Positions 7,171 through 23,993 of a DNA stretch of 64,000 bases are shown in pieces. Each line of letters begins with the position of its first letter. The stretch's first letter is position 1. Both the position numbers and the translations under genes were made by a program. Location of the stretch: positions 88,314-152,313 of the forward strand of contig DASSSY010000008.1 of assembly GCA_035708205.1 (NCBI GenBank), given 5' to 3'. Source of the stretch: Edaphocola sp. (GTDB lineage: Bacteria; Bacteroidota; Bacteroidia; Chitinophagales; Chitinophagaceae). The notes under the pieces were generated by a model. The model searched no databases and was not told the origin of the DNA. It was given only the letters and a program-made list of their open reading frames with translations.

Positions 7171-7202
7171 AAAAAGCCCCATGCTATAGCACAGGGCCTT
7201 TT
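7171..7202 (-). terminator. Hairpin flanked by A- and T-runs; likely the original tRNA-Pro terminator displaced by the island insertion
   Basis: aaaaagcccc atgctatagc acagggcctttt lies immediately outside the distal copy of the tRNA-Pro 3' end. Read on the minus strand, it follows that tRNA fragment. Confidence 0.5.
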
Positions 7203-7206
7203 AGAT

Positions 7207-7222
7207 GTCGGGAAGACAGGAT
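7207..7222. repeat. Distal att core (copy of the tRNA-Pro 3' end)
   Basis: Exact 16-nt match to 23994-24009. Near-match extends about 6 nt further outward. Confidence 0.85.
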
Positions 7223-7283
7223 GAATACCCGTCATTCTAAACCATTGATAATTAATTTCTTACTACCAAACCAAAAAAAAGAG

Positions 7284-7302
7284 GGCCACGAATAGGGCAC
7301 TA
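7284..7302 (+). repeat. 19-mer gggccacgaatagggcact, candidate integrase arm-type site (distal arm)
   Basis: Exact second copy at 23874-23892 in the same orientation. Both lie inside the island, about 60-100 nt from the cores. Confidence 0.6.
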
Positions 7303-7796: not shown

Positions 7797-8540
7797 TCAG
7801 GCTAACATTTTTTCTAACTTCGTTTTCCACTTCTCCCAGTCTCGCATTTCTTTAGTTTGTAAATCGAAAAACTTCTGTGTATGGTCATGATGTATTAAAT
7901 GACAGAGCTCGTGTATAATAACATACTCAATGCAGCCCTTTGGGGCTTTAATCAGTTCAGGATTAATAATGATTTTGCCTTTAGCAGTGCAACTTCCCCA
8001 ACGGGTGGGCATTTTTCGAAAAGTTATGAGATATGAATTATGAGCTATGAGTTCAATATTGTGTTTAACCACAAACTTTTCAAGTAAGGGAGAGGCTATT
8101 TGTGGCAGGCGTTCCTTCGCTTTTTGCAAGTACCAATCTTCTACCAACCTTTTTGCCTTGCTTTTATCTTTTGTATAGACATTTAAAAAACCTCCGCTCA
8201 TTCTTACACAATCATTTCTAACCCCTAATTCATCATTCATAATTCTTAAACGGTATTGTCGACCCAAATAAAGATGGGTTTCCCCACTAACATATTTTCG
8301 CTTTGGCGTTTTTGGTTGAAAGGAAAGGAAAAAACTTTGCTGTTTGAGTATCCATGGCGCTTTCTTTTTTATTTTCTCTTTTACCTTCTCAATTGACGTG
8401 TCTGCCGGTGCTTTTACCAATACTTCCATTTCTGGGGTTACGGTAATGCCAAGAGATTTCCGGTTGGAATACACCAAACGAAAGTCAATAACCTTACTGC
8501 CAAATTGAATATTACTTAGTTCTTCTTTCCCTACATTCAT
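7797..8540 (-). CDS. YgjP-like / M48-family zinc metallohydrolase (DUF45), R-M associated
   Basis: HExxH motif in IIHELCHLIHHDH. It sits immediately downstream of hsdR, as is typical for this family. Confidence 0.8.
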   Translation of the reverse strand: MNVGKEELSNIQFGSKVIDFRLVYSNRKSLGITVTPEMEVLVKAPADTSIEKVKEKIKKKAPWILKQQSFFLSFQPKTPKRKYVSGETHLYLGRQYRLRIMNDELGVRNDCVRMSGGFLNVYTKDKSKAKRLVEDWYLQKAKERLPQIASPLLEKFVVKHNIELIAHNSYLITFRKMPTRWGSCTAKGKIIINPELIKAPKGCIEYVIIHELCHLIHHDHTQKFFDLQTKEMRDWEKWKTKLEKMLA

Positions 8541-8571: not shown

Positions 8572-11500
8572 TCAAATCTTATATCTCAATTTAGCTACCT
8601 CAATGCAGCCTTCTGCAATCTTGTCCATCTCATCGAATGACAGGTCAATATTGTATTTATCCCTCACTTCATCGATCAAATAGTCTCCTATTTCAATGAA
8701 TAACCTGCCGGTAATATTTGTCTTAATCTGCCAATCAACAATCGGTTTGCCATCATCCAATACGGAATGCTGAATAAAATCATCAATGTGCAAGGCCGTC
8801 TGCGTGGATATATTTTTGCAAGTTAACTTGTCTTGTATCTTTTCAGATAGAACCTCAACAGTCAATCCATAAAATGCCTTAGCGATATCTCTTTCCTTCA
8901 ACTGCTCCGGAATATCCTTGTCGGTATGAGCAAGAACATCATTCATAATTTCCTGAACCCTCTTCAGGTATTGTGCTTCATTGATGCGCTTAGCCTCATA
9001 ATCGGCAATAGCATCTTTCAACATTTGAGAGAACTTTTTATAAAATGCAGGGTCTTCATCCATTTTCTCCCGGATGTGCTTAGCTGTTCTGCTGGCAATT
9101 TTGTCAGCCTTGGCTGCTTTCCCCGTCGTGTTTTCCACTTCCTGCTGAAATTTGTCTTTGTCGAAAATGTTCACCAATTCGGTAATCGTCTCAATCTTTT
9201 CAGTAGTAATATGAGTATCAATCAGCTTTTGAATCTGACCTTCGTACTGTTTGTAATTTATGACATCGCTGTATCTTTCCACCACGGCCAGACGTAACTT
9301 CAAGAACATAGCCAGATCTTCCTTATATCGGTCAATGACCTTTTCCTCCACTTCATTGTGAAACTGGATGGAAGATAAAGCCAGTTTTAGACTTTTGGCG
9401 AAGTCGGCCAGTTTGTCATAAAACAAGACTCTCTTAGCTTCATCTTTCAATAACTGCTGATAGGCTTCTGCATCGCGTTTGTTGGTTATGGTCTTGAATA
9501 TATCCCATAAGTCGGAATGCTTTTGCGGAAGCTTCTTTATTTCCTCAGATATATTGGTAAGGGTACCGGCTAAGTCTTCTTCATCGAAATCTTCAAATGA
9601 GGAATACAACTTCAGCGCATCATCTAAATTTTCAATTACACCGTAGTAGTCAATAATATAACCAAAATCCTTGTCCGGATAAATGCGGTTAACTCTGGCT
9701 ATGGCTTGCAGGAGCTTGTGCCCGCGTAGGTTTCTGGTCAGATAAAGCACGGTATTTTTGGGCTCATCAAAACCCGTAAGCAATTTATCTACCACAATGA
9801 TAATTTCGGGGTCTCGTTGATTCTTGAAACGGTTAATCACATTCGTTTCATATTTTTTAGCATTGCCATGCTCCTCCATCATTCGCTGCCAAAACCGGTT
9901 GACCTTTTCCGATGATTTTTCATAGGCTGTTTCTTCTCCCTCCCGCTCGTCAATGGGAGAAATGAGTACTTCACTGGTTACAATACCAATTTCATCCAAA
10001 AACTCTTTATAGCGGATAGCATTTACCTTTTTATCACAAACTAACTGGGCTTTAAATGGCGTCCCCTGCCAATTACTGCGGAAGTGCCGGCTGATATCCC
10101 AGGCTATCGCATAGATTTTTTGTTCGGCGCCATTGAGTTGGTCTGCCCTTGCAAATTTCTTTTTCAAATCGGCCTTTTGGTAATCGGTCAACGGTTCGGA
10201 AACCATACCGAAAAAGGTGTCTATGGGGTTTTCATTGACCTTTTGACTGGCGACTCTTCCTTCGTACAACAATGGAACAACCGCCCTATCTCTTACGGCC
10301 TCATCAACGGTATAAGCATCAATAATGCCGCCGAATTTTGCTGCGGTACTCTTGTCTTTTTTGAAAAGGGGGGTTCCGGTCATGGCGATAAAACATGCGT
10401 TGGGCAAGGTTTTTTGCATGTCTATATTGAATATGCCATGTTGGGTTCTGTGGCCTTCATCCACCAGTACAAAAATATCAGGGCTTTCCAATGGTTTGTT
10501 GATTTTCTTTACCGCGGCCACAAACTTGTTGATGATTGTGGTAACTACGGCATCGCTTTTGCTTTCCAATAATTCCACCAACCGTTGGCCGGTCGTGGCA
10601 TTTTCTACAAACTTGCCGCATTTTCGGAAAGTCCCGGTGAGCTGGCGGTCTAAGTCAGTGCGATCGGTTACCAATATTATTTTCGGGTTCTGAATGCCTG
10701 GGTCCATTGCAATAGCCTGTGCCAACATGACCATAGTTAGTGATTTCCCGCTTCCTTGTGTATGCCAGATTACGCCACCTTTTCTTCTGCCATTTTCAAT
10801 ATGTTCAATTCGCTGCATTGTCTTTTTAATGGAAAAAAATTGCTGGTAACGAGTTACTTTCTTTTCTCCATTGTCGAACAGGATAAAATTGAAAATGATG
10901 TCCATTAACCTCTTGGGACGACACAATCCATATAAATACCTGTCTTGTTCCGTTGGTAAAATGGTCTCTTGTTTTAATGCATCGAAATATTGACGAACAT
11001 ATTTAAAGCGGTCTGCAAACAACTGATTTTTAATTCCATCAGACAGCGGTTCGTTTTTTATATCCTGTAATCTGGCCTTATAGGTTTGTTCCTCCTCAAC
11101 GGTTTCAAATTTTTCCTTCCATTTCGACCAGAATTCTTCCGGCGTGGCATTGGTTGCATAAAGGGCATCATTACAACTGATGGAAAGCAGTAATTGGGCA
11201 TATACATACAAGCTGCGAATGCCGTCTGCCTGCTGGCTCCTTAATTGCTGGCTGATTGCCTGCGAAAGCGGTTCTTTCCTATCCGGGCGCTTACATTCGA
11301 TGATGCAAAGCGGAATACCATTGACAAATAAGACCAGATCGGGCCTATAATGCTCTTTGCTGGTGCTCCGCATGACGCTAAACTCCTCGGTAACATGAAA
11401 AACATTATTGCTGATATTCTTCCAGTCAATGTATTGAAGCGTGAAACTTTTTTTATCACCGTCCACACTTTGCTCCAATGCCTGCCCCAGGGTAAGCAGG

Positions 11501-11799
11501 TTGTATGCTTTTTCACAGGCGGCAATGTAGCCTTCATTCATGGGCAGGTTTTTGAGCGCTTGTATGCCCCGCTCAATATTTTCATCTGTGAAAATGCTCG
11601 TCCGGGTAGCACTTACCCGAATACTGTTGATTTCCTTCAATTGCCTTCTCAGGATATCTTCCAGCAATACATTAGATGTTTTGCCACCTCTTTGCCGCTC
11701 AGCTTCTGCCGGACTAAGGTAACTGTAACCCAATTTCAGCAGCATTTGCAGCGCCGGAATCTGGCTGATATGATCTTCTTTGAAACTTGGTATATTCAT
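8572..11799 (-). CDS. hsdR: Type I restriction endonuclease subunit R
   Basis: 1075 aa. N-terminal nuclease-type region (MNIPSFKEDHISQIPALQML... CIIECKRP) and SF2 helicase motifs TQGSGKS and VLVDEGHR. Confidence 0.95.
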   Translation of the reverse strand: MNIPSFKEDHISQIPALQMLLKLGYSYLSPAEAERQRGGKTSNVLLEDILRRQLKEINSIRVSATRTSIFTDENIERGIQALKNLPMNEGYIAACEKAYNLLTLGQALEQSVDGDKKSFTLQYIDWKNISNNVFHVTEEFSVMRSTSKEHYRPDLVLFVNGIPLCIIECKRPDRKEPLSQAISQQLRSQQADGIRSLYVYAQLLLSISCNDALYATNATPEEFWSKWKEKFETVEEEQTYKARLQDIKNEPLSDGIKNQLFADRFKYVRQYFDALKQETILPTEQDRYLYGLCRPKRLMDIIFNFILFDNGEKKVTRYQQFFSIKKTMQRIEHIENGRRKGGVIWHTQGSGKSLTMVMLAQAIAMDPGIQNPKIILVTDRTDLDRQLTGTFRKCGKFVENATTGQRLVELLESKSDAVVTTIINKFVAAVKKINKPLESPDIFVLVDEGHRTQHGIFNIDMQKTLPNACFIAMTGTPLFKKDKSTAAKFGGIIDAYTVDEAVRDRAVVPLLYEGRVASQKVNENPIDTFFGMVSEPLTDYQKADLKKKFARADQLNGAEQKIYAIAWDISRHFRSNWQGTPFKAQLVCDKKVNAIRYKEFLDEIGIVTSEVLISPIDEREGEETAYEKSSEKVNRFWQRMMEEHGNAKKYETNVINRFKNQRDPEIIIVVDKLLTGFDEPKNTVLYLTRNLRGHKLLQAIARVNRIYPDKDFGYIIDYYGVIENLDDALKLYSSFEDFDEEDLAGTLTNISEEIKKLPQKHSDLWDIFKTITNKRDAEAYQQLLKDEAKRVLFYDKLADFAKSLKLALSSIQFHNEVEEKVIDRYKEDLAMFLKLRLAVVERYSDVINYKQYEGQIQKLIDTHITTEKIETITELVNIFDKDKFQQEVENTTGKAAKADKIASRTAKHIREKMDEDPAFYKKFSQMLKDAIADYEAKRINEAQYLKRVQEIMNDVLAHTDKDIPEQLKERDIAKAFYGLTVEVLSEKIQDKLTCKNISTQTALHIDDFIQHSVLDDGKPIVDWQIKTNITGRLFIEIGDYLIDEVRDKYNIDLSFDEMDKIAEGCIEVAKLRYKI

Positions 11800-11888: not shown

Positions 11889-11924
11889 AATTCTTCTCTT
11901 AATTCTTCTCTTAATTCTTCTCTT
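11889..11924. repeat. 12-bp x3 perfect tandem repeat (aattcttctctt; minus strand AAGAGAAGAATT)
   Basis: Units at 11889-11900, 11901-11912 and 11913-11924. It lies in the 139-nt gap between the AlbA_2-like gene and hsdR. Confidence 0.9.
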
Positions 11925-11938
11925 AAATACTTGCCCAA

Positions 11939-13600
11939 TCACTTTTTAAGAGACCATTTGGGTTTACTATAAGTACCTGTATTTTCAATTCTTTCTTTCA
12001 TCCTTAATTCTGATAGTAGGTTCCCAATCTTGTTTTTCTTCTGCTTATCATCCATCCAGTCTGGTAGCTTCTTCCACAACAATTCGTCTATGTCACTCCT
12101 TTCCAGTATCTTATGTTCTCTGATTGCTTTTTCAATTAAATCCAGATAATAGCTCTTATCAAAAGCCTTGTTTTTAGAATAAGCGGCCTTTTGACCTGTT
12201 TTTGCGGCTACTTTTATTCCTATGTAATAGTTTGGCTTCCTCCCCTCAATCAGGTTTTTGTTCCGTAAGTGCTTCTCTTCAAAAGCCGATAAAGTTTGCT
12301 TCTTCTGAACTTTGTCCAGCATCATAATTTCTTCCAAAGTCAGGTCTTTATTCTGAGCAAGTAATCGGGCATAATTCATGTCCAGGATTTTTCCCGAAAT
12401 GGACACTTTTACTCTATCGTTAGACAAGTCGTAATCAGGTAAAGGAAAAAATCGCGCTCGCTGAAAATTAAATATTTTCTTAATGCCCCCGCCGGCAGTA
12501 TCTACCATTTTAAGATTAAACATAGCGGTTGCCAGGAAACGGTTTCGGTAATATTCTTCGGGTGCATCTTCTATAACCACCTTTTCTACGTTTCCGGGAA
12601 TAAAGGAACCCTGATTGGTGAATACCAGTTGATCGGGCATCTCTATGACGTTTATTCTCGCGTTTTTTGTATAATCCTGATGAGCAATACAGTTATTGAT
12701 GGCTTCACGGATGGAGAACGGCTCATACTTTGATACTTCTGTAGGAAAAATAGTTCCTTCCTGCATATAGCGATACTTGATATTCCGAACCTTTGCATAT
12801 ACCTTTTCTACGGAAAGAATGAAAGGCAACCCAAAAATCTCATAATCTATATCATTGTTCTTTTCATCAACCAACTTCCAACGAATTTTGATATCAGCAG
12901 GACTCAGAAAATGCTCGGATTCATCTTTTCCTAAAAGGATGAGTGCCGTTCGGGTAATTTTTCCTTTGATGGTTACTTTTGATTTATTGAGAAAAGCAAT
13001 ATCATCCCAGGCATCCACTTCTTGCGCTTTATCTGGAAATTTATTTTTAAAGTTTTTTCTGGCCAGCGCAATGGCATCTTCGTCCAAATCTTCCACTGAA
13101 GCACCGGAGACAATGGCCGCACTCCAGTCTTCTTTAATTGCCTGAGCACGAATACGTTCAATTTTTTCAAGATTCAGCGGGGCTAATTCTTCTCCGTCAC
13201 GGGCGTAATAATGCCCATCAAATGCAATTGGAATCCCCCGCGGAGCCGCCGGAATCTGAAACATAATAACACGGCCATCGGTGGTATTGAGCTCGTGAAT
13301 CTCAATAAAAGAAATCCGATTGGTAGTTTTATTGGCAATCTCACCTTTTAAGCTGTCAAGATCCTTTCGTAAAGTTCTAAAATTACTTCCAATAATAGAA
13401 TGATCTTTATCTCTTATACCAAAAACCAGCCAGCTATAAGGCTTGCCTTTTAAATTGGCCTCATTACTTAAGGCAGAAAAGTATTTCCCCAGTTTGGTAA
13501 AGTCATAACCTTTTTTAGCTTCCTTAAATTCAACAATTTCATTCTCGGCCGTGAGATCGAGGAGGCTTTGAAGGATATGTCTTAATTCTGTCATAGGCAT
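11939..13600 (-). CDS. AlbA_2 (Schlafen-like) DNA-binding domain plus HATPase_c_4-type ATPase plus C-terminal wHTH protein ('RecG-like' transcriptional regulator family)
   Basis: The N-terminus ENEIVEFKEAKKGYDFTKLGKYFSALSNEANLKGKPYSWLVFGI is typical of AlbA_2. The central region has NNCIAHQDY and MVDTAGGGIKKIF. Confidence 0.7.
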   Translation of the reverse strand: MPMTELRHILQSLLDLTAENEIVEFKEAKKGYDFTKLGKYFSALSNEANLKGKPYSWLVFGIRDKDHSIIGSNFRTLRKDLDSLKGEIANKTTNRISFIEIHELNTTDGRVIMFQIPAAPRGIPIAFDGHYYARDGEELAPLNLEKIERIRAQAIKEDWSAAIVSGASVEDLDEDAIALARKNFKNKFPDKAQEVDAWDDIAFLNKSKVTIKGKITRTALILLGKDESEHFLSPADIKIRWKLVDEKNNDIDYEIFGLPFILSVEKVYAKVRNIKYRYMQEGTIFPTEVSKYEPFSIREAINNCIAHQDYTKNARINVIEMPDQLVFTNQGSFIPGNVEKVVIEDAPEEYYRNRFLATAMFNLKMVDTAGGGIKKIFNFQRARFFPLPDYDLSNDRVKVSISGKILDMNYARLLAQNKDLTLEEIMMLDKVQKKQTLSAFEEKHLRNKNLIEGRKPNYYIGIKVAAKTGQKAAYSKNKAFDKSYYLDLIEKAIREHKILERSDIDELLWKKLPDWMDDKQKKNKIGNLLSELRMKERIENTGTYSKPKWSLKK

Positions 13601-13610: not shown

Positions 13611-14384
13611 TTATGAGTTTATCAATTCAGCAATTTCATTGGCTATTTCTTCAACGGTAAAATTTGCCGTATTACGGGCAAGCTTATCAGCTATTGAAGG
13701 GGAAAAATCAACTACTTCCTGTTTTGTTATATTGTGCCAAATTGGGAGTAATACTTGTTCCCCACTTACAACCTTTGTAATGATTCCATCCAATTCGTAA
13801 TTTGTCCAACCTTTCTTAATAAAATTCCTTGATAATACAACTATTCCAAATTTACTTTTGGCAAGTCCTTTGTCTATCTTCTGCCTTAAACTGTCACCAA
13901 TTTTCAATTCAAACTCGTCATACCAAACGGATAGCCCTGCGTTTCTAAGTGCGATAGCTAATGGCCGAACTATTTCATCCTTATCTTCGGAGGCATGGGA
14001 AATAAATACATCATGCTCTCTGTAAGCCCCATTATCAAACCCAAATGGAGATTGCGCTCCACCCTGAACCAATGAAGGCACCGACGATAATGGAGCATCT
14101 TGATAAACTGGTAAAGCGGAAGGTAATATCTGTACATTAGCATTTGTGGAGCCTCTCAATCCTTGCATATCAACCGTTACATAGTAGTGCCCCGAACTTG
14201 GAACCCCTAATATAACTGGTGATTTTGTTACTAATCCGCCTACATAACGATGACTCCTTCCCGATTTATAATTATTGTAATTGGAGTTATCCATTAAACG
14301 AACATTCGCAGCATTTCCAGTTAATGTTACCTTAACTCGTTCACCTCTTTTAAGCTGTTTTAAGTCCCAAACTAAATATTCCAT
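13611..14384 (-). CDS. DUF1883-TIR domain protein
   Basis: N-terminal ~95 aa (LKRGERVKVTLTGNAANVRLMDNSNYNNYKSGRSHRYVGG) is DUF1883-like. C-terminal TIR has HDVFISHASEDKD and a candidate catalytic Glu in WTNYELDG. Confidence 0.75.
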   Translation of the reverse strand: MEYLVWDLKQLKRGERVKVTLTGNAANVRLMDNSNYNNYKSGRSHRYVGGLVTKSPVILGVPSSGHYYVTVDMQGLRGSTNANVQILPSALPVYQDAPLSSVPSLVQGGAQSPFGFDNGAYREHDVFISHASEDKDEIVRPLAIALRNAGLSVWYDEFELKIGDSLRQKIDKGLAKSKFGIVVLSRNFIKKGWTNYELDGIITKVVSGEQVLLPIWHNITKQEVVDFSPSIADKLARNTANFTVEEIANEIAELINS

Positions 14385-14406
14385 ATTTTTTATTTTACTT
14401 CTTTTT

Positions 14407-15273
14407 TCAACTTACAGGAAATTTATCTCCAAACAACTGCTTCCAGATATTCAGGGCATTTTTATTACTATTAGTTTGAATTGCTAACTCCGCATCTTTA
14501 AGCATTTGCCGGAACGTTTCTTTGAATTTAGTTCGTTGATCAAAATCCAATTTTAATAAATTATCTTGTGGTGTTGCCGGATTAATAACCTCAGTATCTC
14601 CGTTCCAAAACCCTCCAAAAGTTGATTCAATGGCTTTGGCTGTTTCAAAAAATGCTTTATCATCTCGGCTGTTTGGTTTGTAATTATTAGTAACCCAAAT
14701 CGTGAAAGAGATTCCATTTGGCATTTTTCTGCTCCGCTGATATGCCCATGCTTTAAAGTATTTCACCAGCCGTATTAGCTGCCCATTTTTATCTTTTCTC
14801 TTCTCAAACCAATCACACAGTTCTTTTGGATCACTTTGTAGCCAACCTTTCTTCGTAGCTAAAAAGGGATGTTTGTCATGGGGTGTTTTATAATACACAG
14901 GTAAGTCAATATCATAATCGCCTTGGTAAATGACTCGGATACATTTCTCTCTGTGCTCAACACCTCCTACAGTACAGCCATTTACAGCATTGTGAACATT
15001 TTTTTGTAAACTTAATGATTCAATTTTGGGTTTCTCCAGAAAATAAATTCCTAAGTCAACATCATAAGTGCCATTCTTTTTTACTACCATAGTTCCCATT
15101 TTGTAAGAACCCTGTATATAAAATCTTGGTGTAAGGAATTTTGCATGTGATTTAAAATGTTCACGAATACGATTCTCTAATGCTTTTCGTGAAGCAATCA
15201 GCTTTTTCTTTTTGGCAGGACTAAGCGAAATAGCCCGTTCAAATTGCAAAAATTGCTTATAAGTGTTTCCCAT
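14407..15273 (-). CDS. CD-NTase-like (cGAS/DncV-like) nucleotidyltransferase, short form (288 aa)
   Basis: Pol-beta NTase triad layout: IQGSYKMGT, YDVDLGIYF and DYDIDLPVYY, followed by WLQSDPKELCDWF and LIRLVKYFKAW. Confidence 0.75.
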   Translation of the reverse strand: MGNTYKQFLQFERAISLSPAKKKKLIASRKALENRIREHFKSHAKFLTPRFYIQGSYKMGTMVVKKNGTYDVDLGIYFLEKPKIESLSLQKNVHNAVNGCTVGGVEHREKCIRVIYQGDYDIDLPVYYKTPHDKHPFLATKKGWLQSDPKELCDWFEKRKDKNGQLIRLVKYFKAWAYQRSRKMPNGISFTIWVTNNYKPNSRDDKAFFETAKAIESTFGGFWNGDTEVINPATPQDNLLKLDFDQRTKFKETFRQMLKDAELAIQTNSNKNALNIWKQLFGDKFPVS

Positions 15274-15284
15274 TGCGCTATGAA

Positions 15285-16349
15285 TTACTTAGCATCAAAG
15301 AATTTACTGCCACTCCCAAAATTCTTAATAATATCGGTAGCATTTTTTTGAAATTCTATATTGGCTTTCTCAGCGAGTTTTTTAAGTTTTCCTTTATTTG
15401 TTTCGTCCATTTCAATAGGGCAACTTTCATCTAATTGTGTATCAATTCTTATGTAGTGAAAGTTATCCGGCTCTTGTTTGTCAATACCATTTTTTAAGAT
15501 GCTAATTAAGTTTTGCGCTTGTTGAGTTTGACCTTGCATAAAAACTTCAATCAGCCGTTTCTTTCCATCTCCAAGCATCCAGTAATAAATGCCATATTTC
15601 ACGCGATGTTTTTTCTTCTTGTCTATTCCGGCGTCACAAAAGCGTTGATGTCCCGTTCCGACGGATAAAACAGATAAGTCTTTTAGCTCAAGGTTGAAAG
15701 CTTTTTTTGCTTCGATAATTCCATTTAACGTTGGGTTATTTGCAAATACACCTCCGTCCACTTTATTTTGGAAAGGTTTTTCTAATCCATTCAAATCAAT
15801 GTAAGAAGCTGAATATGGGTCAAAATAAGTGGGGGCAGCTGAAGTCGCCAATGCGGCTTGGTATGCCGGAATATGAAAGTCTCTGACAAAGGCTGGATGA
15901 TATTTACTCTTTAGAACCGAAGGCCTTCCTTCCATTAAATCATAAATGGGAATGGCTACATGTGTTTTACAATGTTTTAATCTTGGGTCTTCTCCATCTT
16001 CTCCATTGTGATAAGCCTTGTATTTGTCCCGGATTAACTTTTCTAAAGCATCACGATTGTAAGCAGCATATTTAAATCGTTTCAGAAAGCCCTTTTTATT
16101 ACCAAAAATAGTCTCAGCATTATTCAAATAGAGTTCGTAAATCTCTTTTGCAGGAATACCCAAGGCCAAAGCAATTGCCATAATTCCGCCTGTGGAAGTA
16201 CCACAGATTAAATCGAAGTTCTGATAAACCTGCCATTTCTCAATGCCTTTGGCTTTGAGTTCTGCTTCATAGTTGGCTAAAAACATTGCTGGGAAAATGC
16301 CTCTGATTCCGCCACCATCTATGGATAATATTTTGAAGGGTTCTGCCAT
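15285..16349 (-). CDS. Patatin-like phospholipase (CapV-like)
   Basis: Oxyanion-hole motif DGGGIRG, nucleophile elbow GTSTG, and catalytic Asp in VDGGVFANNP. 354 aa. Confidence 0.85.
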   Translation of the reverse strand: MAEPFKILSIDGGGIRGIFPAMFLANYEAELKAKGIEKWQVYQNFDLICGTSTGGIMAIALALGIPAKEIYELYLNNAETIFGNKKGFLKRFKYAAYNRDALEKLIRDKYKAYHNGEDGEDPRLKHCKTHVAIPIYDLMEGRPSVLKSKYHPAFVRDFHIPAYQAALATSAAPTYFDPYSASYIDLNGLEKPFQNKVDGGVFANNPTLNGIIEAKKAFNLELKDLSVLSVGTGHQRFCDAGIDKKKKHRVKYGIYYWMLGDGKKRLIEVFMQGQTQQAQNLISILKNGIDKQEPDNFHYIRIDTQLDESCPIEMDETNKGKLKKLAEKANIEFQKNATDIIKNFGSGSKFFDAK

Positions 16350-16350: not shown

Positions 16351-17607
16351 TTATTTGATTCTGATTTTACCAGTTAATAATTGCTGCATCAATCCTTTCT
16401 TCTGCATCCTTAGTTTCTCCGCTTTGACCTTGAGCAGGTTAATTTCTTTATCTGCTGCTCGCAAGATTTGGACAATCGCTGTTTGCTCCTTAATTGTCGG
16501 GATAAAAAACTTCATTGAACAAAGCCCATCAAAAGATAAGCTATCTCGTACACTACCTTGAACGAACATCGGGATATGGCCGTAAAACCATTGTGTTTTT
16601 AAGTGGAAGTAAAGAAAATCCGCCAGCAGACGTTTTTCGTCCGTTGCAAATATAATATACATCGGGCTTAAAATCCCAGCTTCCAAATTTCTTAGCAAAT
16701 CGAGCGAGCCAACATTAACCCTGGATGGATTGTAGGCAAATTGACCTTTCTTGACTATCTTATAATTTGAAGTATTCTCACTTGCAACGGTTCTATCAAA
16801 TTGGTCCGTTTGGTTAATAAATCCTCTAGAATTGGTTACAGATAAAATGTTTAAAACCTTTGCCTCTTTATTTCTTTCTGAAATTTCCCTTATAAACTGG
16901 CCAACGGCTTTTAGCTTAACTTCCCCACTAAACCCGTTCGACCGTATTTTCCCACTTAACAATTGCTGCATTAGCCATTTTTTGCGAAGTTCTTTTTGGG
17001 CTATGAGTTTATCGGTGGCCGCAATGACAGCATCGCATGATTTTAATATTCTTGCAATTGATTGTTGTTCAGGAATAGTTGGGAGTGGAATTTTAACTTG
17101 AGAAAGGTCTCCTTGTCCAATATTTGTTCTAACCGCACCTTGACCATTTCGTATAATTTGATTCCTTACAATACTTGAACGAAGACAATATCTTTTATAA
17201 AAATCATCTATTGATTTGTTCAATGGTCGCCCTCTTATCACAAAGCCTCCAAATACAACTTCATCTGTTCCATTATAAACGGCAGATAAACCAATTTCTT
17301 CAACCGTTTCCGATGTCCTGTTGAAAAGCACATCTCCATCTTTTACTAAGTATAGTTCTTTCTGCTCATCGGATATTTGGACTGTTCCGGGAATCAAGTC
17401 AGGTGTGATATAGTCATTATAAATAACTTCCATAACGTTAATAAACTTAACACCACTCCCATAACTTTCTTTTCCAGCATTGATACCGTTTTTAAAATCA
17501 AACAGTTTACCTAATTTAATTACATCCCACTCACTTGGAATTACGGCATCAAGGGAAGGCCTTTTTAAATTGCTGTTTTTATTTTTTACTTCTGGTTGCT
17601 TCATCAT
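16351..17607 (-). CDS. hsdS: Type I R-M specificity subunit, full length with two TRDs
   Basis: Two TRD halves, each ending in the conserved PLPTIPEQQSIARIL / IPTIKEQTAIVQIL motif plus a coiled-coil ending LMQQLL(S/T)GKIR. Confidence 0.9.
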   Translation of the reverse strand: MMKQPEVKNKNSNLKRPSLDAVIPSEWDVIKLGKLFDFKNGINAGKESYGSGVKFINVMEVIYNDYITPDLIPGTVQISDEQKELYLVKDGDVLFNRTSETVEEIGLSAVYNGTDEVVFGGFVIRGRPLNKSIDDFYKRYCLRSSIVRNQIIRNGQGAVRTNIGQGDLSQVKIPLPTIPEQQSIARILKSCDAVIAATDKLIAQKELRKKWLMQQLLSGKIRSNGFSGEVKLKAVGQFIREISERNKEAKVLNILSVTNSRGFINQTDQFDRTVASENTSNYKIVKKGQFAYNPSRVNVGSLDLLRNLEAGILSPMYIIFATDEKRLLADFLYFHLKTQWFYGHIPMFVQGSVRDSLSFDGLCSMKFFIPTIKEQTAIVQILRAADKEINLLKVKAEKLRMQKKGLMQQLLTGKIRIK

Positions 17608-18064
17608 TAGTTTCTTTTAGTTTGTTAGCTTGCTTTTCCGCTTCGGTTTCGTTATGAATACCGCCACCACGCCAAGTGCCGGTACATAGCCAAAGTTCAT
17701 AATGACACAGCCATTCGCAGGCCCAAGGAATTAATGTTCGAATATAAAGCATCCCAACATTCCACTCCACACGATTAGGATAATACAAGCACAATCGCTG
17801 GTCAGGTGTCGAATAGACGTGCGGTAAAGTCTTCTTCCCTTCAGCAAGAGCTAATGGTTTCGGTTCTATTACATATACCCTAATGCCGTTATTTCTAATG
17901 TATGTCAATTTTAATTTGTAAGTATTGCTTAGCGGTGATGGTGTAACTGAACCTGTCCAAGTGAGAGATTCTTCGCGGAAGCGTCTTATTGTACAATCAG
18001 GAAATATCTTTTTTAATGTTCCTTCCTGCACAATCAGTGATATCCTATTGTTCTTCTTTACCAT
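17579..18064 (-). CDS. Stand-alone UBC/E2-like protein (candidate catalytic Cys92)
   Basis: YKLKLTYIRNNGIRVYVIEPKPL...LPHVYSTPDQRLCLYYPNRVEW...TLIPWACEWL mirrors the E2 core pattern (beta-meander, His 10 residues before Cys-Leu, downstream Trp and helix). It overlaps the NTase gene by 20 nt and hsdS by 29 nt. The call is by eye only. Confidence 0.55.
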   Translation of the reverse strand: MVKKNNRISLIVQEGTLKKIFPDCTIRRFREESLTWTGSVTPSPLSNTYKLKLTYIRNNGIRVYVIEPKPLALAEGKKTLPHVYSTPDQRLCLYYPNRVEWNVGMLYIRTLIPWACEWLCHYELWLCTGTWRGGGIHNETEAEKQANKLKETNDEATRSKK

Positions 18065-19280
18065 AGAAGTTATGATTTTTCAAAGTTGTGCCAACGCTAC
18101 CTAACATTCCGGAAGATGCCGCCATTTTCAGTTCTCCGTTTTCCCGAAGCAATCTGGTTTTTTCGCTATAATTAGAGAATGCTTTTGCAACCACATTTTC
18201 TCCAAATGGTTTTGATAATGCTTCCTTAATAAAATGCAAGCCTCGTTGTCTTATGGCGTACTGTAGATCAAGTTTAACCTGCTTAATCCACTTATAGAAA
18301 TTTTCTTGCTTTTGCGGGTTCTCCGGCCATTTATCAGCAAAGTTCTCGGTATCATTTACCGGATTACCAATCCATTTGATATTTTTTCTATATTTCTCTG
18401 AATATCGTTCTTCTATGAAAGCTGACATTCTTTCAACTACCTTCAACAAGGCTTCTATAATATCAGTTTCCTTATGATAGGCTCTGGCAGCAAGCGTGGT
18501 AATAATGATGGAAATAGGTTTATCTTCATCCCCGTTGAACATCATATCTCTATGTCGTTTCAAAATTTGAACGACACGTTGTAGAGGTAATTTTCTTGTC
18601 TGGTATTTAGGAACCGGCTGTACCGCTTCGCTCATCAGGCGGAGTTCACTTGTAAGCAATTTTGCTCTGTTTTCGAACCAGATACCATAGCCGAAGGGGT
18701 TACTCTTAGGCCACCATTCCGGTTGGGTTTCCATCCTATAATTTATTTCGAGTTTATCAGTGATGCGAATGGCAAGTGTTTCAAAATCTACGGTGGAAGC
18801 TGAAAGACTTTTTTCTAACAGAACCCGGTATCCACTACTTACAATAGCGGGTAAAATGTCCAGATGGAATTTGGCTGAATCTGCATACTGTAATGTCCAA
18901 CATCTTCTTCCGTCTGGTATTTTTAGCAGACGTTTTAAAGTTCCATGGTTAACCAGTCGCTGACCAACTATTTGTTTCAGATTATATTGCGTCCATTCAG
19001 GCCTTTTACCTTCAAGCCTACAAACTAAGTCAATATCAAGTTCATCATCATCATGTATAGGTTTAATCATTGTGCCCAGCATAAATGAACCTTGTGGCAA
19101 TATTTCCGGGTTATACGGAGAAAGATTCGATTCTGGAGCGGAAAGCCATTCCCCCACAAACTCATAACTTTTAACCGCTGCGTCATGCTGTTCTTTGGTT
19201 ATATCAAGCGACTTTCCTAATTCTTCCAGTATATCACTAAATTGTTTTTTTTGTTCTGCTGTAAGCATATTAAATAGCAT
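18045..19280 (-). CDS. SMODS / CD-NTase-like nucleotidyltransferase (411 aa)
   Basis: QGSFMLGT, ELDIDLVC and FHLDILPAI form the catalytic triad layout. Downstream are WPKSNPFGYGIWF and LQRVVQILKRHRD helices. The start overlaps the hsdM stop by 11 nt. Confidence 0.75.
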   Translation of the reverse strand: MLFNMLTAEQKKQFSDILEELGKSLDITKEQHDAAVKSYEFVGEWLSAPESNLSPYNPEILPQGSFMLGTMIKPIHDDDELDIDLVCRLEGKRPEWTQYNLKQIVGQRLVNHGTLKRLLKIPDGRRCWTLQYADSAKFHLDILPAIVSSGYRVLLEKSLSASTVDFETLAIRITDKLEINYRMETQPEWWPKSNPFGYGIWFENRAKLLTSELRLMSEAVQPVPKYQTRKLPLQRVVQILKRHRDMMFNGDEDKPISIIITTLAARAYHKETDIIEALLKVVERMSAFIEERYSEKYRKNIKWIGNPVNDTENFADKWPENPQKQENFYKWIKQVKLDLQYAIRQRGLHFIKEALSKPFGENVVAKAFSNYSEKTRLLRENGELKMAASSGMLGSVGTTLKNHNFYGKEEQ

Positions 19281-20829
19281 TTAATTGTTTAAGGTATTTA
19301 TCCATTTCCGCTTGTACGGTTTTCAATTCGTCTTCTAATTGCTCTATCTCATTTTGCACCGCAGCAATATCCACTTCTGGTTCTTCTTCAAAAGTATCCA
19401 CATAGCGGGGTATATTCAGGTTAAAGTCGTTTTCCTCTATTTCTTCAAAAGTGGCTATATAACTATATTTATCTTCGACCACACCCGGTTGTAGTTTGCC
19501 GGCGGTAAAACCCCGGTAAGTATTTACAATATGGTCAATATCCTCTGGGCGCAGCTTATTTTGATTTTTGGCGCTTTCATAGTGCTTGCTGGCATCAATG
19601 AACAATACATTATTGCTGCTTTTCACCTTATTAAAGATGAGAATGGCCGCCGGAATACCGGTACCAAAAAACAGGTTGGCCGGTAAGCTAATAACGGCTT
19701 CCAACAGATTTTCTTCAATGGTTTTTTTACGAATCTTCCCTTCGCTGGCTCCACGAAATAACACACCATGAGGTACGACCACGCCCGCTTTTCCGTTCTC
19801 ATTCAACGTTTCTATCATGTGGGTAATGAATGCCCAGTCGCCTTTGCTCTTGGGCGGCACACCCCGCCAAAAGCGGTTGTACTTATCCGTTTCCGGGTCA
19901 TAGCTAACGGTAGTTTTTTCGCCGTCTTTATCTTCCACCTTTCCCCATTTGTCCAAAGAAAAGGGCGGATTGGCTACAACGGTGTCAAATTTCATCAAAG
20001 CATCGCCTTCTTTAAGCTTGGGGTTACGAATAGTATCGCCCCAGCGAATGGTGGCGTTGTCAAAGCCATGCAGGAACATATTCATCACCGCCAGCGCCCA
20101 GGTGCTGCCATTGGCTTCCTGTCCATAGAGCGAAAAATTATCGGAACCTACTTCTTCACCTGCTTTTATCAGCAATGAAGCAGAGCCGCAGGTAGGGTCG
20201 GCAATGCGAGACCCCGGCTTTGATTTAGTAAGTTTGGCAATGAGCGTAGATACTTCCCTCGGGGTGAAAAACTCCCCCGCCTTTTTCCCGGCATCGCTGG
20301 CAAAGTTTTCAATCAGGAACATGTACGCACCACCAATAATATCCACGCCATCTAAATGAGAGGGCCTTAAATCAAGATCTTCTTTATTAAAATCCAGCAA
20401 CAGGTTCTTCAATCGGATATTTTTATCCTTCGTTTCCCCCAACTTGCTGCTGTTAAAGTCGATATTCTGGAATATACCGGCGCCATCTTCACTGTATAAT
20501 TTTTCGCGATTGGCTTCTTCCAAATCCGCCAAGGCAATATTAATCAGTTCGCCGATATTGGCCTCATTACGATGGTCATATAAGTATCTAAAGTGACTTT
20601 GTTCAGGCACAATAAAGCGTTCGTGCTGCATGGCACGCTTGGCGCGTTCTGTATCCCCATTGTATTTTTTCAAGTAAGCTTCATACTTATCGTCATACAC
20701 ATCGCTGAGGTATTTGATGAACATCATGGTCAGCACATAATCTTTGTAAACACTTGGATCAATGCTTCCACGAAACGTATCGCAGGCTTTCCAGACGGCA
20801 TCATTGATTTTTTTTTGGGTTATCTTCAT
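19270..20829 (-). CDS. hsdM: Type I R-M DNA methyltransferase subunit M (N6-adenine)
   Basis: HsdM N-terminal domain, SAM motif DPTCGSASLL, and catalytic VVANPPFS. Confidence 0.95.
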   Translation of the reverse strand: MKITQKKINDAVWKACDTFRGSIDPSVYKDYVLTMMFIKYLSDVYDDKYEAYLKKYNGDTERAKRAMQHERFIVPEQSHFRYLYDHRNEANIGELINIALADLEEANREKLYSEDGAGIFQNIDFNSSKLGETKDKNIRLKNLLLDFNKEDLDLRPSHLDGVDIIGGAYMFLIENFASDAGKKAGEFFTPREVSTLIAKLTKSKPGSRIADPTCGSASLLIKAGEEVGSDNFSLYGQEANGSTWALAVMNMFLHGFDNATIRWGDTIRNPKLKEGDALMKFDTVVANPPFSLDKWGKVEDKDGEKTTVSYDPETDKYNRFWRGVPPKSKGDWAFITHMIETLNENGKAGVVVPHGVLFRGASEGKIRKKTIEENLLEAVISLPANLFFGTGIPAAILIFNKVKSSNNVLFIDASKHYESAKNQNKLRPEDIDHIVNTYRGFTAGKLQPGVVEDKYSYIATFEEIEENDFNLNIPRYVDTFEEEPEVDIAAVQNEIEQLEDELKTVQAEMDKYLKQLNAI

Positions 20830-20848: not shown

Positions 20849-21211
20849 TTAAGATTTGAGATTTTTTTGTTTGATCGTTAAGATAGTACTTCGAAGCATT
20901 TTCAAAATTTGAGTAGCCTCGTCAGATAGCTTTTCGAATGCACCCTTGTTAATATATTCGGTAAAATAAAGTAATTCCAACCAGTAAAGAGCCTCATCGC
21001 ATTCTTTTTGAGCGATACCAAGTTTATGCACAAAATCATTTTTGCTTTCAGCGTTTTTTGCTTCACGAATATTCGCACCGACCGAAGTACCTGAACGAAG
21101 TAGTTGTTTGCTCATTACAAATTCTTTCTTTTCTTCAGCCAGTGTTTTATACGCCTTCACCACTGAAATAGCAAAAGCAAAGGATTTTTCTTTTAGTATT
21201 GATTGGCTCAT
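20849..21211 (-). CDS. Four-helix-bundle protein (23S rRNA-intervening-sequence protein family)
   Basis: 120 aa with KSFAFAISVVKAYK...QLLRSGTSVGANIREA...SKNDFVHKLGIAQKECDEALYWLELL, typical of TIGR02436-type proteins. Confidence 0.75.
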   Translation of the reverse strand: MSQSILKEKSFAFAISVVKAYKTLAEEKKEFVMSKQLLRSGTSVGANIREAKNAESKNDFVHKLGIAQKECDEALYWLELLYFTEYINKGAFEKLSDEATQILKMLRSTILTIKQKNLKS

Positions 21212-21214: not shown

Positions 21215-21781
21215 TTATCTCTCATAGTTTATAGCTTGAATAATTTGTTGTTGAATTTGTTGCTCCCGAAGTGAATCAATTTTCTGCTTCAGTACTCTTT
21301 CCCTATTCCGGAGTTTGGTAATTCGGAGGATTTTATTTTGTATTTCAATGTTGGGAATGGTAATCTCCAAGCCTTCTAAAACCGTTTTTGAGATAGAAGC
21401 CATCGAAGTTCCGATTGCCTGCTCTTTTAAAATTGTCCGAACAGCATGGTTATTAAGAAACCAAACCAAATATTCCGGCAGCACATTTTCGTCTTTAATC
21501 TTGATGACAAAAAAAGAGGTTGAAGCCACGGCGGGACGGTTATGACTTTCATAAATTGCCGCAAAATTCTTCGTGCCTTTAGCAGCAAAGAGCACATCGC
21601 CCGGCTTTAAAAGATGCCTTTCGGGAATGTCATCTGCAAATAAATCAGGAAAAAGCGTGGTTTGCAACTGACCATAATCGTCAAAATGCTTGACTTGTAG
21701 GTATAGTACATCACCTCTTCCCATTGGTTTTCCAAACAGCCCGGTTCGAATTTTAGCAATATCTTTGATGAGTTTTTCCAA
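21215..21781 (-). CDS. hsdS: Half-size type I specificity subunit (single TRD)
   Basis: 188 aa with one TRD, an ITIPNIEIQNKI motif and a coiled-coil tail. It is the first gene of the operon. Confidence 0.7.
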   Translation of the reverse strand: MEKLIKDIAKIRTGLFGKPMGRGDVLYLQVKHFDDYGQLQTTLFPDLFADDIPERHLLKPGDVLFAAKGTKNFAAIYESHNRPAVASTSFFVIKIKDENVLPEYLVWFLNNHAVRTILKEQAIGTSMASISKTVLEGLEITIPNIEIQNKILRITKLRNRERVLKQKIDSLREQQIQQQIIQAINYER

Positions 21782-22465: not shown

Positions 22466-23719
22466 TCAAAGATGTAATTTTTTCTTCCTCTGATTCAATC
22501 TTCTTTCAACACTCGACATATCCGCGCCGATTTTTTCCTCATCTACTTCCGCATAAATTTGCGTTGTCGTTATTTTCGTATGTCCAAGCATCTTGGAAAC
22601 CGTTTCGATGGGAACACCGTTTTTCAGGGTTACCGCAGTGGCAAAAGTATGCCGGGCAAGATGGAAGTTCATCTCCTTGGTAATGCCGCAAACGGCACCG
22701 ATAATTTTTAAATTCCGGTTGACTTCCTGATTGGATATTGGTGGGAAAATGGTTCCGTTTTGTAATGCCCGCGGGTCATTTTTGTATTTATCCATGATAA
22801 CAATCGCAGCATTTAGAACAGGAACAGCAGACAATTCTTCCGACTTTTTCCGGTAAGTATCTATCCATAATTTTCCATCGTTGGCGACCAAAAGGTCATC
22901 TTTGGTGAGCTTGGCAACATCCGCATAGGCAAGGCCGGTGTAACAGGAAAATAAAAATAAATCTTGTACCAAAATCAATTTCGGATTACTGAATTGCTTT
23001 TCTTCTATGCTGATTAACTCCGGAATTTGTAATTTTTTTCTTTTGACTTTCTTTTTTTTAATCTGGTAATTTTCAAACGGATTATCTTTTATCCAGCCCA
23101 ATTTCTTCGACCATTTGACCATTTTCTTTAATCGTTCCAGATGTTTGGCAACGCCGTTACCTTTACAAACATCCCATTTTTTGATGGGGTAATGCCGTAT
23201 ATAATGCTCCAGCTCGGTAATAAATTGGTAATCCAGCTCGGAAAGAAAAATATCTTCCCGTTTAAAATTAACCTTCAGAAAACGCCGAATGTATTCCTCG
23301 GTGGTGACATAATTTTTCATTGTTCCGGGCGCCAATATATCGCGGTTAATGTCAAGATGGTATTTAAGCAATTGAAGAAGCGTAGGCGCAGATCGGTCTT
23401 GACCTAAAAATTTTTCTTTCAAAATTTCGGCGGATACCGGTTTTTGATGCAATACCATGTCATCATAAAAGTGATGAATCTTTAGTTTAACTTTTTCAAG
23501 GTAGAGATTAAGCTGTTTGATTTCCGGTGTTGCACCTTTAATTTTATCATCTTTCGCCAGCCAGATATTTACGGGAATTCTTCGTTTCAAGGAAATGTCG
23601 GCATTCTTTCTGTTGACGGAAATGAGCAGATAAAGGGGGGCCGTTCCTTCTTTGGTTTTGTACTTCTTTACAAAAAATGATACACCGAGTGTTGGCGTTT
23701 GTTGAGTCATGACATCCAA
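22466..23719 (-). CDS. Tyrosine site-specific integrase (Bacteroidota arm-binding type)
   Basis: N-terminal arm-DNA-binding-like segment (GVSFFVKKYKTKEGTAPLYLLISVNRK), HLARHTFAT, and LGHTKITTTQIYAEV with the catalytic Tyr. Confidence 0.9.
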   Translation of the reverse strand: MDVMTQQTPTLGVSFFVKKYKTKEGTAPLYLLISVNRKNADISLKRRIPVNIWLAKDDKIKGATPEIKQLNLYLEKVKLKIHHFYDDMVLHQKPVSAEILKEKFLGQDRSAPTLLQLLKYHLDINRDILAPGTMKNYVTTEEYIRRFLKVNFKREDIFLSELDYQFITELEHYIRHYPIKKWDVCKGNGVAKHLERLKKMVKWSKKLGWIKDNPFENYQIKKKKVKRKKLQIPELISIEEKQFSNPKLILVQDLFLFSCYTGLAYADVAKLTKDDLLVANDGKLWIDTYRKKSEELSAVPVLNAAIVIMDKYKNDPRALQNGTIFPPISNQEVNRNLKIIGAVCGITKEMNFHLARHTFATAVTLKNGVPIETVSKMLGHTKITTTQIYAEVDEEKIGADMSSVERRLNQRKKKLHL

Positions 23720-23892: not shown

Positions 23893-23993
23893 TTTTTAAT
23901 GATTTTGGATGGTAAGATTTGACTTGCAAAAAATAGAAAAGCCGCTAAAATCAATGATTTAGCGGCTTTCGGGTTTTGTTGAACCCTGTAAAA

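Follow-up and report, generated by a model that had tools for sequence, protein, structure and literature searches.

A patatin, a short CD-NTase and a DUF1883-TIR gene in a type I restriction-modification operon of Edaphocola: probably separate defence modules on one genomic island

INTRODUCTION

Does a gene for a TIR-domain protein that lies directly behind a patatin and a nucleotidyltransferase gene belong to their defence system, or is it merely a neighbour? The question is raised by a 64,000-nucleotide stretch of Edaphocola sp. DNA (hereafter the window), in which three consecutive genes encode a CapV-type patatin, a short nucleotidyltransferase of the cGAS/DncV-like type (CD-NTase) and a protein with a DUF1883 domain fused to a TIR domain. 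An earlier note on this DNA had treated the first two as a minimal type I antiphage signalling system based on cyclic oligonucleotides (CBASS) and the whole as a CBASS-like cassette. For the TIR protein it had proposed a second effector with a new sensor, a ThsB-like signal generator feeding the patatin, or an independent single-gene system. The three open reading frames (ORFs), their coordinates, the 22-nt spacer and all motifs quoted there are present in the sequence and its translations:

15285-16349, minus strand: CapV-type patatin phospholipase effector, 354 aa (NCBIfam CBASS_lipase, PADLOC, PDB)
14407-15273, minus strand: short CD-NTase, 288 aa (NCBIfam cGAS, PADLOC, PDB)
13611-14384, minus strand: DUF1883-TIR protein, 257 aa (Pfam DUF1883 and TIR_2)

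Patatin and cyclase genes are separated by 11 nt (15274-15284), cyclase and TIR genes by 22 nt (14385-14406). We conclude that these genes probably represent two defence modules, a CBASS and an autonomous one-gene TIR system, and not one trio. The region as a whole is likely to consist of separate defence modules carried as cargo in a type I restriction-modification (R-M) operon (hsdM, hsdS, hsdR) on a mobile island at a tRNA-Pro gene. The independent single-gene system is thus the best fit among the three roles proposed for the TIR protein.

RESULTS

The DUF1883-TIR gene is independent of CBASS genes across genomes

More than 7,980 homologues of the DUF1883-TIR protein were found, and all of the 120 best listed consist of DUF1883 plus TIR (232-263 aa). 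An identical protein is recorded for a metagenome-assembled genome of Edaphocola sp. (Chitinophagaceae). We examined ±10 kb around the gene in the best-scoring 80 of at least 525 species-representative GTDB genomes encoding a relative. In 77 of these 80 loci the CBASS genes of the window were absent. A patatin with a short cyclase was present near the TIR gene in a single Flavobacterium locus (L032), and in a second locus (L043) with a truncated patatin; a CdnG-like CD-NTase with an E2 gene, a pair also present in the window (see below), was observed in L012 and again in L032. The gene order in L032 and L043 is hsdS, TIR, patatin, cyclase, and therefore the TIR gene stands on the opposite side of the patatin/cyclase pair. 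The immediate neighbours (150 proteins) fell into 125 Pfam families and those of the next shell (144 proteins) into 137. SMODS was detected in only 5 of these 294 proteins within two genes (2 at ±1 and 3 at ±2), and patatin ranked outside the 25 most frequent families at both distances. DUF1883-TIR is hence found mostly with unrelated partners, an outcome that the earlier note had itself named as speaking against a joint cassette.

The same picture was obtained from the side of the cyclase. Relatives of the 288-aa enzyme (37-81% identity) were collected from 79 metagenome loci and 6 kb were searched: DUF1883-TIR was present in none of the 79, an incomplete sample since the metagenome scan did not recover the JGI contigs of the window's lineage. 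The proposal of one cassette with a TIR effector and a new sensor was thus not borne out, the TIR gene accompanying CBASS genes in 2-3 of 80 TIR loci and in 0 of 79 cyclase loci.

Related islands gave a direct view of the combinations that occur (percentages are identities to the window proteins):

L081-L086 (17 contigs): HsdM 91%, HsdR 86% (values from L081-L083); TIR 91%; CBASS genes in window order
L001: HsdM 86%, HsdR 82%; TIR 90%; no CBASS genes
L087: HsdM 82%, HsdR 80%; TIR 89%; no CBASS genes
L095-L097: HsdR 85-86%; no TIR; CdnG-like CD-NTase, E2, hsdS, patatin and short cyclase

In L081-L086 the patatin is 91% and the cyclase 94-95% identical, and a Fic gene is found instead of the 553-aa gene that follows the TIR gene in the window. 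The cargo of L087 comprises HAD and Fic genes in one entry and DEAD-helicase, DUF2971 and PycTM genes in the other. In L095-L097 the patatin (71-89%) and the short cyclase (64-65%) are followed by a Fic or an AlbA-type gene. In L175 a SAVED effector accompanies the CdnG-like enzyme and E2, while the TIR gene and the patatin pair are both missing. Thus both together, each alone and neither of them all occur within one island family, and TIR and CBASS thus behave like modules independent of each other. A clean insertion or deletion of the TIR gene between the window and the TIR-less sister islands was also sought; no scar could be defined because the flanking cargo differs (Fic, or AlbA-type genes only 24-28% identical).

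Genes of hsd type lie near the TIR gene in 16 of the 80 loci and are absent within 10 kb in the other 64. One recurrent context is found in R-M islands of Bacteroidota, where the TIR gene comes directly or almost directly after hsdS. Another one, in 10-12 loci of Bacteroidales, comprises, in this order, an AAA ATPase (~745 aa), a WYL/WCX regulator (~337 aa), a GIY-YIG-like protein (~100 aa) and TIR (among them L013, L018, L019, L022, L024, L027, L028, L038, L041 and L046). This arrangement may be a separate multi-gene system. No conserved partner was seen in the remaining loci of the 80.

The best 80 relatives are 61-90% identical over their full length and span Bacteroidota, Cyanobacteria, several proteobacterial classes, Firmicutes, Planctomycetota, Gemmatimonadota, Ignavibacteriota, Omnitrophota and others. 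This patchy occurrence across phyla points to horizontal transfer. The degree of conservation across distant phyla is unusually high for a presumed phage-sensing protein. The architecture itself is named among the predominant bacterial TIR architectures in a review (PMC9153377). DUF1883 was detected in 796 of 1.84 billion representative proteins, mostly stand-alone proteins of ~90 aa or fragments; 40 longer representatives included 28 TIR fusions and one caspase fusion (Peptidase_C14). Two long proteins (P0341 and P0349) also contain DUF1883-like stretches, in 11-12 repeats each. A viral origin of the TIR gene was considered and rejected: among 2.9 million viral contigs only 4 encode a relative, so that phages do not typically carry the gene.

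A TIR domain of AbTir type behind a DUF1883 beta-sandwich

The two domains of the protein are encoded as follows:

14118-14384, minus strand: DUF1883 N-terminal beta-sandwich domain, residues 1-89 (Pfam, PDB 2b1y, AlphaFold2 model)
13617-14021, minus strand: TIR domain, residues ~122-256, with catalytic-type glutamate E197 (phmmer against PDB, Foldseek)

Pfam scores were clear for both DUF1883 (8.9e-28, residues 1-89) and TIR_2 (3.6e-21). The motif FISHASEDKD occupies residues 127-136 and YELDG contains E197. Against PDB (phmmer), the TIR domain matched AbTIR (3.8e-55), BtTir (5.9e-53), PdTIR (6.2e-43) and TcpB (6.5e-42). Similarly, Foldseek aligned its predicted structure to AbTir-type TIRs with ~60% identity and TM-target scores of 0.80-0.85. 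The motif WTNYELDG is the same as that of AbTir, and E197 was invariant in an alignment of 15 homologues. AbTir and BtTir cleave NAD+ and produce 2' cyclic ADP-ribose (2'cADPR); the catalytic glutamate of AbTir is E208, and its self-association involves both the TIR domain and an N-terminal coiled-coil domain (bioRxiv 2022.05.07.491051). By homology, the window TIR domain is therefore predicted to be an NAD+ glycohydrolase (NADase)/cyclase of the AbTir/BtTir type.

The N-terminal half is less easily assigned. DUF1883 matched PDB 2b1y (Atu1913) at 5.6e-13, and its AlphaFold2 model (pLDDT 89.5) is a compact all-beta sandwich with one short helix. The best Foldseek match of this model in PDB had E=0.013, among generic sandwiches (collagen-binding, GOLD, PliG-type), and no significant likeness to SAVED, STING, SLOG or CARF was obtained in the same search. 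The full-length model retrieved TIR matches only. No Pfam match to SAVED or STING was found in the protein, and the PADLOC SAVED_TIR profiles cover only its TIR domain. The fusion of TIR to DUF1883 rather than to SAVED or STING, as described in the earlier note, is thus correct, while the profile and structure searches it had suggested for a sensor led to a 2b1y-like sandwich and not to a known nucleotide sensor.

Among PADLOC profiles, PDC-S66 (7.7e-72) matched residues 121-256 with its positions 146-281 of 282, not over full length, and ThsB1 (1.9e-44) likewise matched the TIR half only (profile positions 166-298 of 303). In the literature searched, PDC-S66 appeared in genome surveys only, and we found no functional or experimental work on DUF1883 or DUF1883-TIR.

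The patatin and the short cyclase are better read as parts of an E2-type CBASS split by hsdS

The identification of the pair holds. The patatin carries the motifs DGGGIRG (residues 11-17), GTSTG (50-54) and DGG (~199), and scored 3.1e-25 with Pfam Patatin, 254.6 bits with NCBIfam CBASS_lipase (cut-off 200) and 2.5e-96 with PADLOC; matches to CapV and cGAMP-activated phospholipase in PDB ranged from 1e-31 to 1e-34. The short cyclase carries GSYKMGT, YDVDL and YDIDL and scored 3.2e-17 (DncV-like_NTFase), 2.1e-10 (SMODS), 183.6 bits (NCBIfam cGAS, cut-off 150) and, in agreement, 6.5e-99 with PADLOC. Its active site is intact, with G55, S56, D71, D73, D121 and D123 invariant among 17 homologues. 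The alignment with PDB 7ljo (2.8e-52) joined query residues 1-286 to residues 2-289 of a chain of 341. End to end, the enzyme also aligned at 41% identity with residues 1-287 of an E2-linked cyclase of 337 aa, which is longer by 50 residues at the C-terminus. A C-terminal E2-binding motif is reported for E2-linked CdnG enzymes (PMC12948482), and the short cyclase looks like a tail-less paralogue.

Upstream of the patatin the same operon encodes a second CD-NTase:

18045-19280, minus strand: CdnG-like CD-NTase with E2 partner, 411 aa (PADLOC cyclase 8.9e-134)
17579-18064, minus strand: E2-only CBASS regulator (Cap2-like E2), 161 aa (PADLOC E2 1.4e-51)
16351-17607, minus strand: hsdS specificity subunit, 418 aa (Pfam Methylase_S 2.6e-20; PADLOC Specificity_I 1.7e-85)

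The 411-aa cyclase matched PDB 9woo (1.8e-60) and SmCdnG (8hsb, 1.6e-34), and the 161-aa protein matched SmE2 (8hsb_B, 5.5e-18) and has homologues with Pfam PF26395 (E2-CBASS). The two cyclases of the window are barely alignable to each other. A CD-NTase next to an E2-only Cap2-like protein, with no E1 or JAB, is the feature of type II-short CBASS. No effector adjoins this pair in the window; the patatin gene lies beyond hsdS, likewise on the minus strand, and no strong terminator-like site separates it from the pair. In sister islands the CdnG-like/E2 pair was observed with a SAVED effector of its own (L012:4113-5255, L092:1661-2791 and L175:5823-7007), which is lacking in the window; the occurrence of these SAVED effectors indicates effector exchange within the same slot. 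An HNH_2 domain was weakly detected in the effector of L092.

We then considered the loci whose cyclase shares 52% identity or more with the 288-aa enzyme (L090-L111). A second, larger cyclase was present in all 15 that were informative, that is, that reach far enough upstream of the short cyclase: a CdnG-like enzyme with E2 in 8, a cyclase-AGS_C fusion in 5 and a 337-aa cyclase with E2 in 2. More distant relatives (37-43%) are the only cyclase of their operon, which is of the ordinary patatin-cyclase(-E2) kind. As a second cyclase accompanies it in 15 of 15 relatives, the patatin/short cyclase pair is probably not a self-contained type I CBASS. We found no description of two-cyclase CBASS loci in the literature searched.

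The way in which these genes are joined elsewhere suggests their relation. In Dyadobacter, CdnG-like, E2, DUF2188 and patatin genes form one contiguous operon, and in L099 the CdnG-like, E2, patatin and short cyclase genes are all contiguous. In Ekhidna the four genes are also together, with a 331-aa gene and PycTM between E2 and patatin, and with a fragmented short cyclase. In 10 or more loci hsdS divides the four CBASS genes, and HsdR in these loci may be as little as 41% identical. From these contiguous and split arrangements, the patatin would be the effector of an E2-type CBASS interleaved with hsdS. Accordingly, the patatin and the short cyclase are better read together with the CdnG-like/E2 pair as one hsdS-split, E2-type (type II-short) CBASS, with the short cyclase as a presumed extra synthase. 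Of the minimal type I CBASS proposed earlier, the patatin/CD-NTase pair thus stands; the description is incomplete because the cassette lies in an R-M operon with a second CD-NTase and E2 upstream of hsdS, which had been overlooked.

In its closest relatives from other lineages, the short cyclase is paired with a 2TM-GGDEF gene

Beyond the window's lineage, in the relatives with the most similar cyclases (91% and 87% identical), a gene of ~255 codons lies directly 3' of the short cyclase. In its product, two hydrophobic helices at the N-terminus are combined with a complete GGDEF domain (Pfam 2.9e-32; hereafter 2TM-GGDEF), and the motifs D.D.FK..N, KRxTD and rGDEF are conserved. The short cyclase/2TM-GGDEF pair is kept whether it follows the patatin or E2. 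Examples were observed at L105:6866-7639, L094:6879-7640, L177:7875-8636 and L178:4828-5589, and in 12 more loci. No GGDEF or SAVED homologue was found in the 64-kb window.

The 2TM-GGDEF protein, reminiscent of the add-on modules of Panoptes type, might serve as effector, as receptor or as one more synthase. Guard modules of Panoptes are reported directly beside CBASS operons that encode patatin effectors and ubiquitin-conjugation-like proteins (PMC12657218). By analogy, the 288-aa tail-less CD-NTase might be the synthase of an add-on to the E2/patatin CBASS, like Panoptes or Panoptoo guards, a reading suggested by the second regulated cyclase in 15 of 15 relatives and by the conserved 2TM-GGDEF gene after the short cyclase in the closest ones; we regard it as doubtful. 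Under such a scheme, the short cyclase would make its nucleotide constitutively, as a decoy or a second signal, with the 2TM-GGDEF protein as membrane partner. In the window's own lineage, where DUF1883-TIR occupies the partner slot, the cyclase would then be orphaned or, less likely, the TIR protein would have been recruited as its new output. A short-cyclase clade that always has a second cyclase, and often 2TM-GGDEF, was likewise not found described in the literature searched.

Alternative roles of the DUF1883-TIR protein

Could the protein nevertheless be a second CBASS effector, with DUF1883 as a new cyclic-nucleotide sensor that turns TIR on when the 288-aa cyclase fires? Its gene starts 22 nt past the cyclase on the same strand, the three genes are held as a block in the window's lineage, and TIR stands in the slot 3' of the short cyclase where relatives have 2TM-GGDEF; CBASS operons are moreover known to swap effectors. 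However, TIR proteins 85-90% identical reside in cyclase-free sister islands (L001, L002 and L087), 77 of the 80 TIR loci are devoid of the CBASS genes with TIR upstream of the patatin in L032, TIR is absent from 79 of 79 short-cyclase loci, and the DUF1883 model has no significant match to SAVED, STING, SLOG or CARF, so that we consider this role very improbable. A ThsB-like generator, whose cyclic ADP-ribose (cADPR) isomer would activate the patatin or an unlinked ThsA-type effector, is also very unlikely, although PADLOC ThsB1 profiles match the TIR domain (1.9e-44), the nearest characterised TIRs, AbTir and BtTir, make 2'cADPR, and a few neighbours in the family have ThsB_TIR (3) or STALD (1) domains. 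A ThsA-type protein (SIR2/Macro-SLOG) is absent from the island and was not matched in the rest of the window, a recurrent effector-like neighbour was not found for the family, and a patatin is adjacent to TIR in only 1-2 of 80 loci. Besides, it is cyclic dinucleotides, not cADPR, to which CapV-type patatins are known to respond.

The R-M surroundings raise another role, that of a PrrC-like guard kept inactive by the Hsd complex and released by a phage anti-restriction protein. PrrC is cited as occurring hardly anywhere but within type I R-M operons (bioRxiv 2024.01.29.577857); hsd genes lie near TIR in 16 of 80 loci, and in the closest Bacteroidota relatives TIR is at or near the 3' side of hsdS. 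Against this, hsd genes are lacking within 10 kb in 64 of 80 loci, the AAA ATPase, WYL, GIY-YIG-like and TIR arrangement constitutes a second recurrent context (10-12 Bacteroidales loci), and ~30 R-M islands of the same family, sampled via the cyclase, have no TIR, which makes a guard of this kind unlikely. A function outside defence (decapping of NAD-RNA, NAD+ housekeeping, or a Tcp-like factor against other organisms) would fit the 61-90% identity across phyla, unusual for a phage-facing sensor. AbTir-type TIRs strip nicotinamide from NAD-capped RNA (PMC10937652), and PDB titles describe TcpB/BtpA as immune-interfering virulence proteins. Yet the TIR gene is almost always found amid genes of defence and of mobile elements (hsd, AbiE, GmrSD, ThsB, SMODS, WYL, integrases), and its patchy phyletic spread indicates horizontal transfer; we therefore judge such functions quite unlikely, and a role against animal Toll-like receptor signalling is in particular unlikely because the host is an environmental Bacteroidota (Edaphocola).

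Several points weigh against two separate modules. Patatin, cyclase and TIR genes stay joined in the 17 contigs of the window's own lineage, while the CdnG-like protein there is only 63% identical; a functional link peculiar to this lineage is conceivable, if very improbable. DUF1883-TIR occupies the exact slot of the 2TM-GGDEF gene of the closest other relatives, and this could reflect a swapped partner, not an unrelated insertion. PDC-S66 is a candidate system, of which only the TIR half was matched, the TIR part of the full-length model has moderate confidence (pLDDT 60-80), and we found no experiment demonstrating phage defence by any DUF1883-TIR protein. Finally, from larger sets of loci the 80 best-scoring were taken, and genes in those fetched came from a crude greedy ORF filter that dropped some overlapping genes.

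A possible mechanism and its precedents

With two modules, phage infection would activate a cyclase, whose cyclic nucleotide would switch on the patatin and lead to destruction of the membrane; this activation step is taken over by analogy from characterised CapV and CdnG-E2 systems. Independently, the DUF1883 beta-sandwich, in place of the coiled-coil of AbTir, would most likely control self-association and possibly bind a phage component, as in SpbK. Once assembled, the TIR domains would exhaust NAD+ and abort the infection. SpbK of Bacillus subtilis (PMC12847820) provides a precedent for a one-gene TIR abortive-infection system: its non-TIR part recognises a phage protein and its TIR NADase kills. 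The likeness to the window protein is a functional analogy only. The closest structural likeness is to AbTir, BtTir, TcpB (BtpA) and PdTir, which are also small two-domain proteins with a C-terminal TIR of the same fold and the motif WTNYELDG; AbTir differs by its N-terminal coiled-coil, where the window protein has the 2b1y-like DUF1883 sandwich. The TIR halves of PDC-S66 and of Thoeris ThsB match the window protein while the N-terminal halves differ, and the pairing of a ThsB-type TIR with ThsA that characterises Thoeris is not encountered in the window.

On the CBASS side, the 411-aa cyclase and E2, with overlapping genes, correspond to SmCdnG-SmE2 of the E2-CBASS of Serratia marcescens (8hsb; PMC12948482). 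In contrast to that system, the window pair has no adjacent effector, and hsdS precedes the patatin, which is followed by a second, tail-less cyclase. The order effector, then cyclase, is that of the type I CBASS CapV-DncV, and both window proteins score above the NCBIfam curated cut-offs; unlike CapV-DncV, the window-type short cyclase is accompanied by a larger, E2- or AGS_C-linked cyclase in 15 of 15 relatives. Panoptes (OptS mCpol and OptE 2TM-SAVED, PMC12657218) is likewise a small extra synthase module beside a patatin CBASS with a ubiquitin-conjugation-like gene. The window enzyme, however, is a CD-NTase and not an mCpol, the membrane protein of its relatives carries a GGDEF (palm) domain instead of SAVED, and the window itself has no GGDEF gene.

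Type I R-M operons are known to harbour embedded defence genes, for example TgvAB of the Vibrio island VPI-2 (PMC11411939), and 'guilt by embedding' in such operons has been described, the classic example being PrrC (Payne et al., bioRxiv 2024.01.29.577857). The window adds a further case, likewise with variable cargo between hsdM, hsdS and hsdR. Compared with TgvAB and PrrC, two slots are filled (hsdM-hsdS and hsdS-hsdR), and the CBASS positions are kept down to 41% HsdR identity. A CBASS with a new TIR effector and sensor would have extended the CBASS effector repertoire; the adjacency appears instead as the usual packing of independent defence modules into a hotspot that is already known, namely the cargo slots of R-M operons. 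The TIR module itself belongs to one of the commonest bacterial TIR architectures, extremely conserved across phyla. The conservation of an hsdS-split CBASS over deep divergence hints at co-expression of restriction and abortive infection.

Organisation of the island and of the R-M operon

The remaining features of the island are:

23994-24068, minus strand: tRNA-Pro (ARAGORN)
23984-24009, minus strand: att-type direct repeat, tRNA side (16-nt exact core shared with 7197-7222)
7197-7222: distal att-type repeat (repeat search)
7277-7301 and 23868-23892: second repeat, 25 nt, at both island borders
22466-23719, minus strand: putative tyrosine integrase, 417 aa (predicted from the ORF sequence and the position beside the tRNA att site)
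21215-21781, minus strand: half-HsdS-like gene, 188 aa (homologues with Methylase_S in L081-L083)
20849-21211, minus strand: 23S_rRNA_IVP four-helix protein, 120 aa (Pfam 23S_rRNA_IVP 5.2e-28)
19270-20829, minus strand: hsdM, type I R-M methyltransferase, 519 aa (Pfam N6_Mtase 7.7e-101, HsdM_N 6.5e-26)
11939-13600, minus strand: HATPase_c_4 cargo gene, 553 aa (Pfam HATPase_c_4 2.7e-10), 10 nt downstream of the TIR gene
8572-11799, minus strand: hsdR restriction subunit, 1075 aa (NCBIfam TIGR00348 hsdR 4.6e-139)
7797-8540, minus strand: YgjP-like/SprT-like metallopeptidase gene, 247 aa (homologues with PF01863 YgjP-like)

The island measures ~16.8 kb and is delimited at tRNA-Pro by the integrase gene, a 16-nt repeat of the tRNA 3' end, the 25-nt repeat and a deviating GC content (0.35-0.43 across ~8-24 kb against 0.45-0.50 in the flanks). 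It is immediately adjoined by dnaA (24284-25759). The type I R-M system is complete, as hsdM, hsdS and hsdR were each matched (Pfam, NCBIfam, PADLOC). Outside the island, 37 ORFs reach 100 aa or more; in these PADLOC matched mad2 and RtcR-type regulators only, with no recognisable defence system and no ThsA-type effector.

All genes of the operon lie on the minus strand in the order hsdM, CdnG-like cyclase, E2, hsdS, capV, short cyclase, TIR, HATPase_c_4 gene and hsdR. From hsdM through the 553-aa gene, adjacent genes overlap or are spaced by 1-22 nt; the E2 gene overlaps both the stop of the CdnG-like gene (by 20 nt) and the start of hsdS. No terminator-like hairpin with more than 6 stem pairs was found on the operon strand between hsdM and the 553-aa gene, and the sole weak site (6-bp stem, 19777-19762) falls within hsdM. 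Counts of predicted promoters (53 vs 42 ± 6) and terminators (17 vs 17) resembled those of shuffled sequences, and the scan, whose sigma-70 consensus is probably unsuited to Bacteroidota, was used for the terminator statement only.

The cargo slot after the TIR gene is variable: related islands have Fic in place of the 553-aa gene, and a remote relative of the latter in L177 (569 aa) combines SLFN_AlbA_2 with HATPase_c_4. The YgjP-like gene after hsdR is conserved across the island family (homologues in L081-L083, L087 and L175). Similarly, the half-HsdS gene upstream of hsdM is kept at the same position (L081-L083, L175 and L177). Finally, the 139-nt gap between the 553-aa gene and hsdR contains a 14-nt unit, AATTCTTCTCTTAA, in three exact tandem copies (11889-11926) with 12-nt spacing and a 2-nt overlap, which may be a regulatory element.

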